Shown: positions 27,018 through 30,918, counted from the stretch's first letter. The stretch: 64,000 bases of DNA from Massilia sp. (GCA_045810465.1 JBJMVW010000221.1:23197-87196), one strand, 5' to 3'. Program-made: numbers and translations. The notes: a model not told the origin generated them from the sequence alone.

Positions 27018-28295
27018 ATGCGTTTGCCGGGAACCCGGTATCAGGAGCACGGCTGGGAATACGTTCGCAAGCTGCTTGGCCAGTGTTCGCTGCAGGCGTT
27101 GGCGCGCGGCGGCCAGGCGCGCCTGTTCGAGGCGGACGGGCTGCCGCTGTATGTCGACCTGGTGGCGGAGGCGCTGCACGCGTCAAGCCGCAGCGCGCGC
27201 GCGACAGCGCCCGGCAACAGTTACGGCGATAGCGTGTCCGAACTGGCACTCACGCTGGTGTACGAACTGCGCGAGCGTCCTGGCGAGTGGAGCGCGCTAT
27301 GCGGCGCGCTCGAGGCCGAGCATCAGCGGCACGGCCCGTCCTGGGATCGCGCTGGCGGCGAGGCGCTGCTGCGCAAAAAATTCAACGATATGTATGCGGT
27401 CCTGCGCGACAAGGTCGATGCCGATAATTACCAGGCCGCCTGCGGGCGCGCGTGCAGCGCCAACCGCATGTACGCGTACCGGATGCTGGACACGGCCTGG
27501 GGCGACATCGCCCGCCTGTTCGCCGCGTGGCGCGAAAACGCCGCGCAGGTGGGCGCCATCCTGGGCCGCGCGGTCGAGGCCATGCCGGTCGAAGCGCGCC
27601 AGGTCCGTTCGATCTCGGAGTGCCGGCCCGAGTGGGTGCTGCGCTGGAGCGAGTCGCGCGAGCGTTTTACCGGCAGCGCCGGCCCGCTGCATACCCGGTC
27701 GAAGCGCTTCGCCAGCCTGAAGGATAACCCCAGCAAGATCGGCGCCATGCTGCGCGAGATCGGCGAGTACGAGGAACTGTCGGCCAACCGCGACCAGGAC
27801 TGGCTGCTCGACGCCAGCGAGGCTACGCTGTGGCTGGACGACTACTGGCGCGTGCTGGACGAATCGGCGCACGCGTCGACCCCGGGACCGGACCAGATCC
27901 TCGAGGCGCGCGAGGAGGAGCTGGACCTGGCCGGCCCAGCGGATGCCGGCGAGCCGGCGCCACCCGCGCCGCGGCCGGCGGCTGCGCTGGCGGCGATGGA
28001 GGCGGCGCACAGCGTTTCACTGCCCCCCCGCTTCGTGGAACTGGCGCGCGCCGCACAGGAGGCCGGCAGCTGGAGCGCGCGGATGCTGGCCGGCGACTCG
28101 CTGCCGGTGCGGCTGGCGGTGTACCTCAAGCTGCTCGGGGCGGCCGACGACAGCTATCCGTCCGAGTGGCTGGACCCGGCGACCGCCGAACTGCCGACCA
28201 TGCAACAGCTGGCGGCGCTCGACCAGGTGTCGCTGCCGACGCTGCGCAAGCGGCGCGACGCGGCGATCGAACGCCTGAAGGGACTGCGAGCGTGA
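27018..28295 (+). CDS. Hypothetical cytoplasmic protein (425 aa), possible C-terminal HTH
   Basis: RBS GAAGAGG 5 nt upstream of ATG 27018. C-terminus LPTMQQLAALDQVSLPTLRKRRDAAIERLKGL resembles a sigma-70 region-4-like HTH. First gene of a 4-gene operon. Confidence 0.55.
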   Translation: MRLPGTRYQEHGWEYVRKLLGQCSLQALARGGQARLFEADGLPLYVDLVAEALHASSRSARATAPGNSYGDSVSELALTLVYELRERPGEWSALCGALEAEHQRHGPSWDRAGGEALLRKKFNDMYAVLRDKVDADNYQAACGRACSANRMYAYRMLDTAWGDIARLFAAWRENAAQVGAILGRAVEAMPVEARQVRSISECRPEWVLRWSESRERFTGSAGPLHTRSKRFASLKDNPSKIGAMLREIGEYEELSANRDQDWLLDASEATLWLDDYWRVLDESAHASTPGPDQILEAREEELDLAGPADAGEPAPPAPRPAAALAAMEAAHSVSLPPRFVELARAAQEAGSWSARMLAGDSLPVRLAVYLKLLGAADDSYPSEWLDPATAELPTMQQLAALDQVSLPTLRKRRDAAIERLKGLRA

Positions 28296-28306
28296 AGGAG
28301 AACGAG

Positions 28307-28864
28307 ATGACGATGACTGGACTGGACCGCAAACTGCAGGAAAGGCTGCTGCTGGCACGCCGCAGCGAAGGTGATCGCCTGGTGCTGGCCGACGAGGTGC
28401 TGGGCGCGGCGCTCGACGGCAGCCGCCCGCTGACCGTCAACGAGCGCGCCGCGCTCGAAGCCTCGCCGCTGACCGTGCGCCGCCTGCGCCAGCTTTCCAT
28501 CGAGCGCCGCAGCGCCGCGAACGATTGCGCCTGGAACGGCAGCGCCGGCATGCTGCGCGCCGCCGACAACGGCGCCGCGCTGGCCGAACTGGCGACCGAC
28601 GACGGCTGCTGGACCCTGCATTTTGTCGGCCGCGACGGCGACTCGCGCGTGATCCTGCAGCTGGCCGCCGGCGCGCCTTTCGCCGCGCGCCTGCTGCGCG
28701 AACAGGCGATGCTGCGGGTAGTCGATGGCGGCGGCGCAGTGGTGCTGCAGGGCCGGCTGGATGCCGACGGCGAGTGCGAGGCCGCGTGGCCGTTCGCCAG
28801 CGCGCCTGCCGCCCACTTCCAGCGCGCCGGCGCCGCGTTCGCGGTCGAACCGCTGCGGCCCTGA
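28307..28864 (+). CDS. Hypothetical protein (185 aa)
   Basis: RBS GAAGGAG 7 nt upstream. Starts 12 nt after the previous stop. Confidence 0.5.
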   Translation: MTMTGLDRKLQERLLLARRSEGDRLVLADEVLGAALDGSRPLTVNERAALEASPLTVRRLRQLSIERRSAANDCAWNGSAGMLRAADNGAALAELATDDGCWTLHFVGRDGDSRVILQLAAGAPFAARLLREQAMLRVVDGGGAVVLQGRLDADGECEAAWPFASAPAAHFQRAGAAFAVEPLRP

Positions 28865-28867
28865 CGC

Positions 28868-29917
28868 ATGCTCGGCCTGTTCAAACGCTTGGGGCCGCAG
28901 GCCGGGGTCGACACCTCGGCCCTGGGCGCAAGCGCGCTGGCGCTGCCGATGCCGTCCGCTCGCGTGGTGCCGGCCGCTTGCACTGGTGTGGTGGTCGCGA
29001 GTAGCGGCAGCACGCGCCGAGTGGCCGAGGGCGCCAGGCTGGTGCTGGCCGAGGGCGAGCGCGCGTTCTGCTTCCACCCAGGCCCCTACAGCGCGGAGCT
29101 GGCGCCGTTCGCGGCGGCGCCCGAGATCGGGCTGCGGGTCGCGTTCGCGGTCGATCGCCCCGACCCGCGCGCGATCCAACAGCGCTTTGACCTGTACCTT
29201 GCGAGCGAAGGCGGCGACGGGGTCGGGCTGGCCGCCTTCGTGGCCGCTGTCGAGGCGGCGCTGCAGCGTGAACTGGCCCAGGGCAACCTCGAACTGCCCC
29301 CGTGCACCACGCTGGAGGAATGGAACGCCTTCCGGGCCGGGTTCGACCAGTTGCTGTATTCCCGCTTTGGGGTGACGGTCGACGATTGCGTGCCGGTCGA
29401 CCTGGGCGAGTGCCGCGACTACGCCGCCATGCTGGAGGGACGCGCCGCGGCCGCACCCGTGGCCGCGATGGCCCCGCCCGAGGCACCGCATACGGCGCTG
29501 GCGTTCGATCCGGCGTGCGCCGATGCGGCTGCATTGCGGCGCCTGTTCCTCGAACTGCCATGCGTGATGTGCGCGTTGCGCGTTGCGGTGCTGCCGGCCG
29601 GGCAGGCGCTGTTCCGCCAGCACCAGGCGCTGCTGCAGCGCCTCGATTTGGTGAGCCTGTCCGTCGCGACCATGCCGGCACTCGAACTGGAAGCGCCGGG
29701 CCAGCCGCTTGCGCCCGGCCAGCAGTTGCGCCGCGCCCGCCACAGCAGCCGCGCCGCGGTCGGGCTGGACGAGGCATGGGCGCTGCTTGCGCGCCTCGAG
29801 CATGCCGGCGAGGCGCAACTGGCGGCGCTGTTCGACGAAGCCGACCGCATCGTCGCCAACCTGGAACACGACACGGCCGGCCGCCGCGCCGTGGCCGGCG
29901 AAACGGAGGGAGCATGA
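28868..29917 (+). CDS. Hypothetical protein (349 aa)
   Basis: Starts 3 nt after the previous stop. The next gene overlaps it via ATGA. Confidence 0.5.
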   Translation: MLGLFKRLGPQAGVDTSALGASALALPMPSARVVPAACTGVVVASSGSTRRVAEGARLVLAEGERAFCFHPGPYSAELAPFAAAPEIGLRVAFAVDRPDPRAIQQRFDLYLASEGGDGVGLAAFVAAVEAALQRELAQGNLELPPCTTLEEWNAFRAGFDQLLYSRFGVTVDDCVPVDLGECRDYAAMLEGRAAAAPVAAMAPPEAPHTALAFDPACADAAALRRLFLELPCVMCALRVAVLPAGQALFRQHQALLQRLDLVSLSVATMPALELEAPGQPLAPGQQLRRARHSSRAAVGLDEAWALLARLEHAGEAQLAALFDEADRIVANLEHDTAGRRAVAGETEGA

Positions 29918-30918
29918 TTGCGCTGCCCGTCGGCGCCGAATGCCGCAGCATGCTGGCCGACGGCTCGCTGCTGACGGTGAGCGCGACCCGGCGCGAACGC
30001 GCAGGCCGGGCCGACGTCAAGTGCAGCGCGGGTGGCAACCTGGCGCTGGCCGGACGGATGCAGCAGGTGGTGCGCCTCGCGCGCCTGACCGAAGCGCGCC
30101 TGGACAGCCGCGACCAGGTCGTGATCAGCATGGACCGGCCGCCGCAGGATCATGAACGCGACTGGGAACTGGCCGTGGTGCTGGCCGACCGCATGGTGCG
30201 CGGCCTGTTCCACGGCGCCGGCGCCGTGTGCGCCAACGGCTGGTCCGACGAATGGCACCTGGGCCGCGTCACGGGACACGACCTGCACGAGGCCCCGGCC
30301 CACGTGCTGCTCGGCGGCGAGGGCGGTTTGCCGCACCTGGGCGCGTTGGCCGGGCGGCCCGACCAGTCGGCGGCGGTGTCAAGCGCGCGCGCCTGGTTCC
30401 CGCTGCGCAGTGGTGGCATCAACGATAGCCTGTGCTGGGTCGAGGTGAGCGTATATCCGCTCGCGCACGACGGCGCCGACGAGGAAGCGTCGATCGCCGT
30501 GCCTGGCCTCGACGCTGCGCGCCAGTTGGCGGTGCGCCAGGCGCTGGTCGGCGCGCGCCATTTCGATGGCCGTGCGCTTGGGCGCTGGCGCAGCGTGGTG
30601 CGCTTCGGGCAGGACCGGTTCCAGGGCAATTCGTATGAACTGGCGCTGGTGATGGCCGACCGCCTGGCGCGCGGCCGCGAGTTCCTGCCGCGCGGGCGCA
30701 TTGTCGCCAGCGGCTGTTCGGCCGCCTGGCACGTGGGGCGCGTGGATACGGTGGAGGCGCTGGCGCCGAAATGCGCGCTGATCCTGCACAGCGCGGCGCC
30801 GGGCGACCGCATCCTGCTGCCGAAGGCGTGGAAGCCAGGGCTTCCGCCCGGGTACGCGGACGCGCTGCGGGCGAAGGGCGCGAGCCTGGCCTGCGTGGAG
30901 CGGATCGGGATCATTTGA
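29914..30918 (+). CDS. Protein with tandem Lon-protease C-terminal (S16-like) domains, second copy retaining candidate Ser/Lys dyad
   Basis: RBS GGAGGG; ATGA overlap. Internal duplication: DWELAVVLADRMVRGLF...GWSDEWHLGRVTG and NSYELALVMADRLARGREFLPRGRIVASGCSAAWHVGRVDTVEALAPKCALILHSAAPGDRILLPK. Compare Lon [51 protein letters not shown]. Confidence 0.5.
   Translation: MIALPVGAECRSMLADGSLLTVSATRRERAGRADVKCSAGGNLALAGRMQQVVRLARLTEARLDSRDQVVISMDRPPQDHERDWELAVVLADRMVRGLFHGAGAVCANGWSDEWHLGRVTGHDLHEAPAHVLLGGEGGLPHLGALAGRPDQSAAVSSARAWFPLRSGGINDSLCWVEVSVYPLAHDGADEEASIAVPGLDAARQLAVRQALVGARHFDGRALGRWRSVVRFGQDRFQGNSYELALVMADRLARGREFLPRGRIVASGCSAAWHVGRVDTVEALAPKCALILHSAAPGDRILLPKAWKPGLPPGYADALRAKGASLACVERIGII

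Follow-up and report, generated by a model that had tools for sequence, protein, structure and literature searches.

We examined a window of 64,000 nucleotides from Massilia sp. (GCA_045810465.1 JBJMVW010000221.1:23197-87196), of which positions 27018 to 30918 carry four uninterrupted open reading frames on the plus strand. The product of g1 (27018-28295, 425 aa) is all-alpha, with a linker that is acidic and disordered and an HTH-like region at the C-terminus; in g2 (28307-28864, 185 aa) a linker of variable sequence connects two conserved regions; and in g3 (28868-29917, 349 aa) a linker, likewise variable, separates an N-terminal HPGPY-motif domain from a C-terminal domain that is conserved. 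The product of g4 (29914-30918, 334 aa) is a tandem Lon-protease-fold protein. Coordinates and junctions, re-read from the sequence, agreed with the preliminary description: the genes are separated by 11, 3 and -4 nt, the last junction being ATGA, and the ribosome-binding sites GAAGAGG, GAAGGAG and GGAGGG precede g1, g2 and g4, respectively, with none at g3. GC content at the three codon positions was approximately 0.77/0.53/0.87 in all four frames, as is typical of coding sequence in a 70% GC genome, and the long antisense ORFs displayed a shadow pattern of codon-position GC. Public annotation of a Massilia sp. MAG includes proteins identical to the 425-, 349- and 334-aa products (P0121, P0360 and P0001). 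The four proteins were said to be devoid of signal peptides, and a sequence scan found neither TM nor signal sequences in any of g1-g6; by hydrophobicity scan, g1, g2 and g4 are free of TM segments, and g3 has a single moderately hydrophobic stretch at residues 226-244. As the description of these proteins as uncharacterised would predict, g1-g4 were without match to known families in Pfam, NCBIfam, PADLOC and PHROGs. In the reading we favour, the four genes are one transcription unit, which would encode a previously undescribed module of regulated proteolysis.

The genes are conserved as a unit: they are collinear in ~75 species of Oxalobacteraceae and, in distant taxa, in 11 metagenomic loci of 49-68% GC. 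Median junctions across the 75 Oxalobacteraceae species were -4, +3 and -4 nt, and 67 of these species have the ATGA overlap between g3 and g4. Among the distant loci, g2, g3 and g4 were collinear in 11/11, a count that includes L082, L085 and L088, where one polypeptide fills the position of g3 and g4, and g1 was detected ahead of them in 10/11. The Oxalobacteraceae block lies in a fixed position with conserved flanks in ~80 species, which represent no fewer than 6 genera and whose proteins are 60-75% identical. Clustered at 50% identity, the family comes to 119 clusters in a set of 1.84 billion proteins, and is rare and patchy outside one clade.

The N-terminus of g1 is invariant (MRLPGTRYQEHGWE), and no fold match was found for this all-alpha protein. 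The possible HTH at its C-terminus corresponds to an HTH-like helix pair that is weakly sigma-region-4-like; its matches to sigma factors were low-scoring, and g1 was not detectable as an ECF sigma factor by Pfam or by sigma-factor comparison. The N-terminal conserved region of g2 carries SPLTLRRFR, and its C-terminal conserved region begins at W-x-GS-x-G-x-LRAA, preceded by AAND in approximately half of the sequences, in an alignment that includes distant members. None of the 11 distant loci is without this protein (E 1e-20 to 1e-67), which gave no PDB or Pfam match.

With regard to g3, we observed no family match and no similarity to g2, g4 or g5. A single polypeptide of 700-754 aa takes the position of g3 and g4 together in L082, L085 and L088, and a g3 HMM matched the N-terminal half of this polypeptide in L088 only, of the three (E 4e-35). 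On this gene arrangement, g3 is the obligate partner of g4; the 2 genes are translationally coupled, and one polypeptide replaces both in three distant loci.

The suggestion of Lon-like domains in the fourth protein was borne out, in that the Lon proteolytic-domain fold is present in g4. It is a stand-alone Lon-fold protein without an AAA+ domain; its 334 aa hold no fused AAA+ module, and neither Lon_C nor any other Pfam or NCBIfam model matched at E <= 0.1. Domain 1 is a degenerate copy of the fold, in which both catalytic residues are lost. Domain 2 carries Ser240 (30631-30633) and Lys286 (30769-30771), which are invariant in 45 diverse g4 members, down to 24% identity, while domain 1 drifts. 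In the predicted secondary structure Ser240 lies at the start of a helix and Lys286 within a helix, as in Lon, and it is by invariance and by this position, rather than by superposition, that we propose Ser240/Lys286 as the candidate catalytic dyad. The Lys region aligned weakly to A. fulgidus Lon, and a profile of diverse g4 members, run against PDB sequences, gave as its sole match a true Lon protease domain, at a marginal E of 0.05; BLASTP against a segment of E. coli Lon, represented by an approximate sequence, gave no match. In structure comparison g4 came closest to the P-domains of RadA and ComM, which are non-proteolytic, and this counts against the explanation we favour. Possibly, g4 is not a protease and is instead a ring-forming scaffold in a nucleic-acid-handling machine like those of the RadA/Sms and ComM P-domains, with g1 as DNA-binding subunit. 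We judge this improbable. To our knowledge the RadA and ComM P-domains have no Ser-Lys dyad, whereas the pair in g4 persists where the dyad-less domain does not hold its sequence; the one PDB match was to a protease; and neither a helicase nor a recombinase gene accompanies the module consistently in the distant loci. Compared with canonical Lon proteases (MEROPS S16: LonA, LonB and LonC), BrxL and these P-domains, g4 differs in the absence of AAA+ and N-domains and in its duplicated-domain architecture, as well as in the Lon_C and PDB results given above.

The next gene, g5 (31032-32969, plus strand), begins 113 nt past g4 and encodes a 645-aa protein with an N-terminal CxxC...CxxC Zn ribbon, an SPFH domain and a coiled coil of roughly 400 aa. 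Its match to Pfam Band_7 is marginal and above the gathering threshold (28.9 bits vs a cut-off of 23.6, E 1.4e-6), and Band_7 was flagged also on the homologues from L001, L088 and L089; a solved SPFH protein was not found for g5 by sequence. A Kyte-Doolittle scan revealed no TM or hydrophobic segment, so that the membrane anchor typical of flotillin, HflK/C and stomatin is absent, and g5 is predicted to be cytoplasmic. Most orthologues have a second, C-terminal Zn ribbon, which is absent from the window copy. No other partner accompanies the module as often as g5, which is present in 81/81 Oxalobacteraceae loci and 7/11 distant loci. SPFH proteins are known to pair with proteases, as in HflK/C-FtsH and stomatin-NfeD, and here too, as in those assemblies (including STOPP), an SPFH gene lies beside a protease gene with which it presumably cooperates. 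The present pairing differs from them in that g5 is without TM segments and has Zn ribbons and the long coiled coil, and in that the protease is Lon-fold and not FtsH or ClpP-like.

The kinase gene g6 (32977-35121, plus strand) most likely starts at ATG 32977, 7 nt past the SPFH stop codon, and its product is arranged as SHOCT, Ser/Thr kinase, coiled-coil linker and FGE-sulfatase (C-type-lectin-fold) domain. Pfam matched FGE-sulfatase (PF03781) over its full length at 4e-57, Pkinase at 1e-31 and SHOCT weakly, and all NCBIfam equivalog scores were far under their cut-offs. True FGEs have a catalytic motif of the C-x-x-S-x-C type; in g6 the catalytic Cys pair is replaced by YHPRYL, the sequence at that site reading RGGSWLYHPRYLRS.

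The module had been described as reading straight into the SPFH and kinase genes. However, the 113-nt spacer between g4 and g5 holds a promoter-like, extended -10-like motif, CTGCTAGAATC (30967-30977, plus strand), which is kept in 19 of 21 aligned species, the 2 exceptions having spacers of just 35-40 nt. Since the SPFH/kinase pair has this conserved, putative promoter of its own, its expression is not simply a matter of read-through from the module. A second promoter-like motif, TGTGGCATTATTT (26970-26982, plus strand), contains an extended -10-like TGGCATnAT and may serve g1; as TGGCAT[GCT]AT it is kept in the spacer between g1 and the preceding gene, g0, in 20 of 21 aligned species, ~35 nt 5' of the g1 ATG, and a sigma-70 consensus scan did not pick it up. 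The proposed 7-8 kb unit also proved too small, in that the functional neighbourhood takes in a PBP-like gene upstream and a linked cluster 7-15 kb downstream.

The upstream gene, g0 (23539-26754, plus strand), encodes a class-B PBP-like protein of 1071 aa, which has a single TM segment (residues 53-71), a ~700-aa unmatched region and a transpeptidase domain (Pfam Transpeptidase, 2e-18) with an intact STFK motif. It lies directly upstream of g1 in 73/81 Oxalobacteraceae loci, with a spacer of ~94 nt, and is absent from every distant locus fetched, most of which cover the upstream side. The downstream cluster (37521-46275, minus strand) consists of genes for an FHA protein (37521-38984; Pfam FHA), d7 (41419-42969; 516 aa, no family assigned), d8 (42947-45289; a 780-aa SEDS-like protein, Pfam FTSW_RODA_SPOVE) and d9 (45286-46275; a Ser/Thr kinase, Pfam Pkinase). 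Unrelated MFS and GNAT genes break up this cluster, and a Metallophos phosphatase-like gene is also nearby in the window. The FHA gene follows the block in 59/81 Oxalobacteraceae loci, and homologues of the FHA protein (1e-18), d7 (4e-113) and d8 (2e-76) adjoin g1-g4 in distant locus L088. As judged from these arrangements, the FHA/516-aa/SEDS/kinase cluster is evolutionarily linked to the module. The window resembles the actinobacterial fhaA-fhaB-pstP-rodA-pbpA-pknA-pknB cluster in its combination of FHA, SEDS, class-B PBP, Ser/Thr kinases and a phosphoesterase; it differs in coming from another phylum, in the split of its genes into 2 clusters and in the large novel extensions of its PBP and SEDS proteins, and the actinobacterial cluster holds nothing like g1-g5.

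These neighbours raise the possibility that the four proteins and g5 are accessory regulators of a dedicated, kinase/FHA-controlled SEDS/class-B PBP pair of peptidoglycan synthases, by analogy with the actinobacterial cluster, and that they serve morphogenesis or the response to envelope stress. Such a proposal concerns biological role, and it is compatible with a proteolytic switch. Besides the PBP-like, SEDS-like, FHA, d7, kinase and phosphatase-like genes and the flanks of L088, it draws on SH3_3 genes, of the peptidoglycan-binding type, in L082, L088 and L092, on a g4-like domain fused to Sel1 repeats and PG_binding_1 in P0354, and on the core-like inheritance within Oxalobacteraceae. Yet most distant loci (L083, L084, L087, L093) have g1-g4, or g1-g5, and no PBP or SEDS gene within reach, and the core is therefore autonomous; also, for g1-g6, which are without membrane or export signals, any connection with wall synthesis in the periplasm would have to be indirect. 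We consider this role rather unlikely.

The distant metagenomic loci show that the association of the module with SPFH and FGE-domain genes extends far beyond Massilia. FGE-domain genes, with a kinase, with a caspase or alone, flank it in 6/11 of these loci. The set of partners varies, in that some loci, many of them short contigs, lack g5 or the FGE genes. The other recurrent neighbours encode AAA+ ATPases and SH3_3 proteins. An IetA-like AAA+ ATPase (E 1e-24 to 1e-33) occurs in four distant loci, and there is none in the Massilia cluster; in L093, which is without g5, an FtsH-like AAA+/M41 gene is adjacent. From the ATPase in four loci it follows that the protease may need an unfoldase, which would change the model. 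The IetAS defence system, attributed to Gao et al. in 2020, is said to consist of an AAA+ ATPase and a protease. The four loci are like IetAS in that an IetA-like gene accompanies a protease gene, and unlike it in that the similarity lies in generic AAA+ cores, IetS is subtilisin-type and g4 Lon-fold, and the Massilia cluster has no AAA+ gene.

As to defence island versus core genome, the answer differs with the taxon: the Oxalobacteraceae position is stable and vertically inherited, and in distant taxa the surroundings resemble a defence island. The latter would suit an anti-phage or abortive-infection conflict system. In such a system the FGE-lectin domains would sense the invader; the effectors would be the Lon-like protease and the kinase or caspase, which would break down proteins of host or phage and bring the cell to arrest or death; and g1 and g2 would be regulator or antitoxin-like components. 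L083 has RhuM (PADLOC PDC-S05, 3e-137) and an HTH_17 excisionase-like gene, L087 has Tse2/Tsi2, L085 has PIN/FitA, L089 has a Tn3 transposase, and both L088 and L089 have caspase-FGE genes; L083 and L087 share common flanks and carry different cargo beside the module. The IetA-like ATPases and the patchiness of the family outside one clade point the same way, and FGS domains, lectin-fold binding modules, are known from conflict systems (PMC7159879). In contrast, the vertical, core-like pattern in Oxalobacteraceae is unlike that of most defence systems; a tblastn search with g4 as query found nothing in 72,556 plasmids or 50,697 phages, and an IMG/VR scan found no homologue on viral contigs; and g1-g5 match no PADLOC 2.0 model, g6 matching PD-T4-6 and MAD6 via its generic kinase domain only. 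On balance, we doubt that the module is such a system.

The locus shares with the FGS/FGE conflict systems (Kaur et al. 2020, PMC7159879) and with DGR-diversified CLec-kinase and CLec-caspase targets (10.1101/2023.09.22.558884) the placement of FGE/FGS domains C-terminal to a kinase or caspase, the occurrence in some cases of several paralogous sensors at a single locus (as in L088) and the island-like surroundings in distant taxa. Neither PMC7159879 nor 10.1101/2023.09.22.558884 mentions a Lon-like/SPFH module, and the neighbourhood pattern described there was not seen here.

A parallel to how g4 may act is CalpL, an ATPase-free Lon-type protease able to act as a signalling switch. The CalpL-CalpT-CalpS system, a Lon-SAVED protease, an anti-sigma and an ECF sigma factor of type III CRISPR signalling, differs from the present one in several respects: g3 and g4 gave no SAVED/CARF match, neither a cyclic-oligoadenylate sensor nor CRISPR genes lie nearby, there were no cas genes among the neighbours scanned, g1 showed nothing of an ECF sigma factor beyond the low-scoring matches at its HTH-like end, g4 combines a degenerate with a dyad-bearing domain and has g3 as an additional obligate partner, and the partners here are SPFH and FGE-kinase proteins.

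We tentatively favour, at somewhat less than even confidence, a model in which the module is a sensor-triggered proteolytic switch that frees a DNA-binding protein. The g3/g4 complex would be kept inactive, probably on or in an oligomeric scaffold of the Zn-ribbon SPFH protein g5. Ligand would be sensed by lectin-fold FGE domains, fused here to the Ser/Thr kinase g6 and elsewhere to caspases or standing alone, and the signal would be relayed, in this genome through phosphorylation. The substrate of the protease may then be g2, in the role of adaptor or anti-factor, or else g1 itself, cut in its disordered linker, and the release of HTH-bearing g1 would change transcription. In Oxalobacteraceae the output would likely concern the cell-wall genes close by, SEDS and PBP, under kinase/FHA control; outside this family, the surroundings of the same core are of the conflict type.

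More broadly, and with greater reserve, it is possible that g1-g4, usually with g5, are the invariant core of a new signalling or immune system, built on an ATP-independent pseudo-Lon/Lon protease that would be scaffolded or caged by a soluble Zn-ribbon SPFH protein and triggered by interchangeable FGE sensors on kinases or caspases. In such a system g1, g2 and g3 would represent families, and possibly folds, without a described relative, and in one bacterial family the core may have become fixed in the genome and wired to a private SEDS/PBP synthase.

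Four open reading frames translated cleanly on the + strand of the window, whose GC content is ~70%: g1 (27018-28295, 425 aa), g2 (28307-28864, 185 aa), g3 (28868-29917, 349 aa) and g4 (29914-30918, 334 aa). The sizes given in a preliminary description made from the sequence alone were borne out by translation, as were junctions of 11 nt, 3 nt and an ATGA overlap, and the ribosome-binding sites are as described there, g3 being without one. Codon-position GC values of ~0.77/0.53/0.87 in g1-g4 indicated that the + strand is coding and that the long antisense ORFs over these genes are shadows. 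The window comes from a Massilia sp. MAG; proteins P0121, P0360 and P0001, which are annotated as hypothetical, are identical to three of the four products. We rejected an ATG at 26910 as the start of g1 (461 aa), a position inside a repeat element and 5' of a conserved promoter-like motif, and placed the start at 27018 because orthologues and the public annotation support it. Downstream, the SPFH gene g5 starts at 31032, after a 113-nt spacer, and the kinase gene g6 most likely starts at 32977, 7 nt past the SPFH stop. No TM segment was predicted in the products of g1, g2, g4, g5 or g6.

A low-GC, REP/MITE-like repeat with a GGGTCAGAGTCRAATTRTTG core and units of ~30-48 nt was found at window positions 26747-26911 and 22339-22401, where zero copies would be expected by chance. 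The spacer between g1 and the upstream PBP-like gene g0 is taken up by four copies, of which two are direct and two inverted, and two further copies lie between RNase H-like and WXXGXW genes. Owing to this repeat the g0-g1 spacer of the window is 263 nt long; in most related genomes it is ~72-115 nt (range 24-189). An Rfam scan of 22-36 kb yielded no match.

We observed that g1, g3 and g4 have ~1,000 or more relatives each, and that among the nearest 120 of each (62-87% identity) every organism-named one belongs to the Massilia/Telluria group or is an unclassified MAG. When one genome per GTDB species was scanned, a g4 relative was present in 220 genomes, and the best 80 of these were all Oxalobacteraceae (Massilia, Telluria, Rugamonas, Janthinobacterium, Pseudoduganella and Duganella). 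Every sufficiently long locus among the best 80 carries g0, g1, g2, g3, g4, g5 and g6 in this order on the same strand, and the same genes recur on both flanks of the block in Oxalobacteraceae loci. Across ~75 species the median gap is -4 nt for g1>g2, +3 nt for g2>g3 and -4 nt for g3>g4, the last junction being ATGA in 67 of 75 species; it is ~94 nt for g0>g1 and ~93 nt for g4>g5. From the conserved order, flanks and gaps the block is therefore vertically inherited and core-like in Oxalobacteraceae. No g4 homologues were found on plasmids, phages or IMG/VR contigs.

Alignment of spacers from 21 species identified 2 promoter-like motifs. The sequence TGGCAT[GCT]AT, at 26970-26982 in the window, is conserved across ~20 species ~35 nt 5' of g1, and CTGCTA[GA]AATC (CTGCTAGAATC), which resembles an extended -10 element of the form TGn-TAnAAT, lies in the g4-g5 spacer at 30967-30977 and is present in 19 of the 21 species. 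A consensus sigma-70 scan detected neither the pre-g1 nor the pre-g5 motif, so that a promoter function for either is suggested by its conservation. We also considered a sigma-54 promoter at the TGGCAT motif and discarded it, the -12 GC element being unconserved and wrongly spaced. The likely transcription units, as predicted from these sequence features, are g0, g1-g2-g3-g4 and g5-g6. The 4 genes had been said to read straight into the SPFH gene; their association with it is real, but with probably separate g1-g4 and g5-g6 units, and a conserved promoter-like motif intervening, direct read-through is too strong a description. In many species the g1 5' leader contains a hairpin rich in GC (TCCGCC...GGCGGA type) between the promoter-like motif and the start (window 26985-27017; orthologous spacers L003, L019, L022, L037, L047, L061 and L070), and the changes in it appear to be compensatory. 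The hairpin is absent in 5 of the 21 species and degenerate in the window.

Pfam, NCBIfam, PADLOC and PHROGs gave no match for g1-g4, nor for 54 members and accessory proteins scanned singly, which places the 4 proteins outside the characterised families of these libraries, as had been supposed. Profile searches of g1, g2, g3, g4 and g5 against PDB sequences were likewise without a match, a diverse g4 profile apart, which retrieved only the A. fulgidus Lon domains (E 0.05); in that alignment a weak second stretch places the invariant g4 Lys on the TG...G.V.PVGG...K region of Lon. BLASTP of g4 against an approximate E. coli Lon segment gave no match. The Lon-like domains proposed earlier for the fourth protein were seen by structure comparison, in which g4 scored 16.7 with the RadA P-domain, 16.0 with both the E. 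coli Lon catalytic domain and ComM, 14.8 with the BrxL C-terminal domain and 13.6 with CalpL. Thus g4 shares the Lon fold, but it has no Lon_C membership by profile. Its 2 halves are mutually homologous (E 6e-8), and GNS-YELA...APK motifs occur in the second half only. Ser240, which precedes a helix, and Lys286, which lies inside one, do not vary among 45 aligned representatives, the most distant at 24% identity; they are 46 residues apart, as compared to 43 in E. coli Lon. The protein might instead be a non-proteolytic scaffold like the RadA P-domain, its best structural match, but this is less likely because the dyad is invariant. We infer that g4 consists of a pseudo-protease domain followed by a predicted active Ser-Lys protease domain, and that it lacks an ATPase. 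In P0354 (634 aa), a domain distantly related to the Lon-like domain of g4 is joined to Sel1 repeats and to PG_binding_1, which binds peptidoglycan.

The g1 model (pLDDT 82) is wholly helical, with an acidic disordered linker at about residues 305-317. In g2, an invariant S-P-x-T-x-R-R motif (SPLTLRRFR) marks the N-terminal region, and after a linker of variable length a C-terminal conserved region begins at W-x-GS-x-G-x-LRAA, just before which AAND is found in about half of the sequences. The g3 protein contains an HPGPY motif in its N-terminal domain, a low-complexity linker and a conserved C-terminal domain. Candidate relationships of g3 to g2 or g4, or to g5 as a cryptic SPFH domain, were rejected at hhalign probabilities of 0-3%. 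A match of its C-terminal domain to haemoglobin alpha (E 0.04-0.2 per domain, 3e-5 for tandem constructs only) was judged to be due to chance, since the aligned His is unconserved among orthologues.

The g5 product is soluble and combines a Zn ribbon with an SPFH domain and a long coiled coil. In the window (645 aa) it is without the second, C-terminal Zn ribbon (R-C-x-NGH...FCA-x-CG; window 32700-32969) that most orthologues (~730 aa) have; the loss looks like a clean deletion and not a frameshift, because only 7 nt separate the stop from the kinase start. The g6 product comprises SHOCT, Ser/Thr kinase, linker and FGE domain, and the last lacks the catalytic cysteine pair of the FGE reference motif. 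Such a domain fits the published picture in which the FGS/FGE domains of conflict systems serve as binding modules with a lectin fold (PMC7159879). The g0 gene (23539-26754) encodes an unusually long class-B PBP-like protein of 1071 aa with one TM segment, in which ~700 residues without a family match are followed by a transpeptidase domain with an intact STFK motif. A second cluster (37521-48244 on the minus strand, plus 47051-48244 on the + strand) encodes an FHA protein, the family-less 516-aa protein d7, a Ser/Thr kinase, a Metallophos phosphoesterase and d8, a SEDS (FtsW/RodA)-like protein of 780 aa that is extended by 300 aa at its N-terminus. Together with g0, this cluster is reminiscent of a SEDS-PBP pair under kinase/FHA regulation.

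The family is rare: when 1.84 billion proteins were searched exhaustively with g4 by HMMER, relatives made up only 119 clusters (50% identity). We used HMMs from Oxalobacteraceae orthologues to examine 11 distant loci (GC 49-68%, g4 identity 30-47%). As can be seen in all 11, g2, g3 and g4 occur in order, and in L082, L085 and L088 a single polypeptide of 700-754 aa takes the place of g3+g4. The true g3-g4 fusions are taken from these 3 loci; the apparent fusion P0268 was discarded, its patchy alignment indicating a frameshifted assembly. A g1 homologue precedes g2 in 10 of 11. In L082 and L085, neither the gene at the g1 position nor the N-terminal half of the long polypeptide matched the g1 or g3 HMM. 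The 4 genes, collinear across ~75 species and in distant loci, are thus a conserved unit, as had been proposed.

Most distant loci are short contigs, where absence of a partner is weak evidence. The Zn-ribbon SPFH protein g5 was found in 7/11, proteins homologous to the g6 FGE domain (alone, kinase-fused or caspase-fused) in 6/11, IetA/TRIP13-like AAA+ ATPases in 4/11 and SH3_3 proteins in 3/11; these partners are recurrent yet facultative. Together with the 81-locus clade block, the SPFH and FGE counts uphold the expected co-occurrence of the core with SPFH and STK-FGE genes elsewhere. Most distant loci, largely short contigs, lack PBP and SEDS genes, with the exception of L088, where homologues of the window FHA protein (1e-18), d7 (4e-113) and d8 (2e-76) adjoin the module and therefore tie the second cluster of the window to the first.

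Several distant loci adjoin island-type cargo (RhuM, Tse2/Tsi2, PIN/FitA, Tn3 transposase). L083:1-3056 and L087:3463-6967 have flanking genes in common (DUF898, M48 peptidase side) but differ in the cargo between flank and g1, RhuM (PADLOC PDC-S05) in the former and a Tse2/Tsi2 toxin-immunity pair in the latter, indicating a variable slot right beside the module. In L088:1-14290, 5 paralogous FGE-domain genes surround the module, 2 caspase-fused and 3 kinase-fused, a sensor array that recalls conflict systems. A family-less protein of ~100 aa (42-64% identity between loci) is encoded close to the module, just upstream of FGE-domain genes, at L089:1-303, L092:439-846 and L093:10671-10985, and a 355-373-aa protein between g5 and g1 is common to L089 and L092.

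Possibly, and we hold this with somewhat less than even confidence, the module works as a proteolytic switch that is triggered by sensors. A g3/g4 protease, perhaps sitting on an SPFH scaffold, would be activated by FGE sensors (the kinase g6 in the window) and would cut g2 or the g1 linker, and cleavage would free the HTH protein g1. This reading draws on the constant, translationally coupled 4-gene set, the single polypeptide for g3+g4 in 3 loci, the Lon-fold protein with its conserved Ser-Lys pair, the recurring SPFH partner, and the repeated presence of lectin-fold sensors that carry signalling or executioner domains. Precedents are CalpL/CalpT/CalpS and SPFH-protease assemblies such as HflK/C-FtsH. 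With regard to biological role, the core-like inheritance and the links to PBP, SEDS, FHA, kinase, SH3_3 and PG_binding_1 point to the cell envelope. Immunity or programmed cell death is suggested by what accompanies the module in other taxa, namely caspase-FGE and AAA+ genes, RhuM, toxin-antitoxin pairs and transposases. The question of defence islands versus core genome has a partial answer, the Oxalobacteraceae block being core-like in its fixed position and its counterparts in distant taxa having surroundings like those of a defence island.

We found no description of a Lon-like/SPFH/FGE-kinase module in the literature, and it is a member of no PADLOC system. Lacking both a SAVED domain and linkage to CRISPR, it stands outside the CalpL family. 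A working logic in common with CalpL-type switches and with SPFH-protease pairs is plausible, and we rate it among the modules that use a protease for signalling or conflict. Its chance of being a new type of system, with 3 core proteins lacking described relatives, is appreciable. To our knowledge, CalpL is the only well-studied ATPase-less Lon-type protease that acts as a signalling switch. The multi-gene module described here is conserved, has a predicted Lon-type protease without its ATPase at its centre, and is covered by no family library or defence-system catalogue. Three known themes meet in it, namely SPFH-protease partnership, FGE sensors of lectin fold that are fused to a kinase or caspase, and the control of SEDS-PBP wall synthases by Ser/Thr kinase and FHA proteins; their combination would be new. 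Culturable genera, Janthinobacterium, Massilia and Duganella among them, carry the module, and its study may reveal the role of the cytoplasmic FGE-domain kinases, so far unexplained though widespread, and define 3 new protein families.
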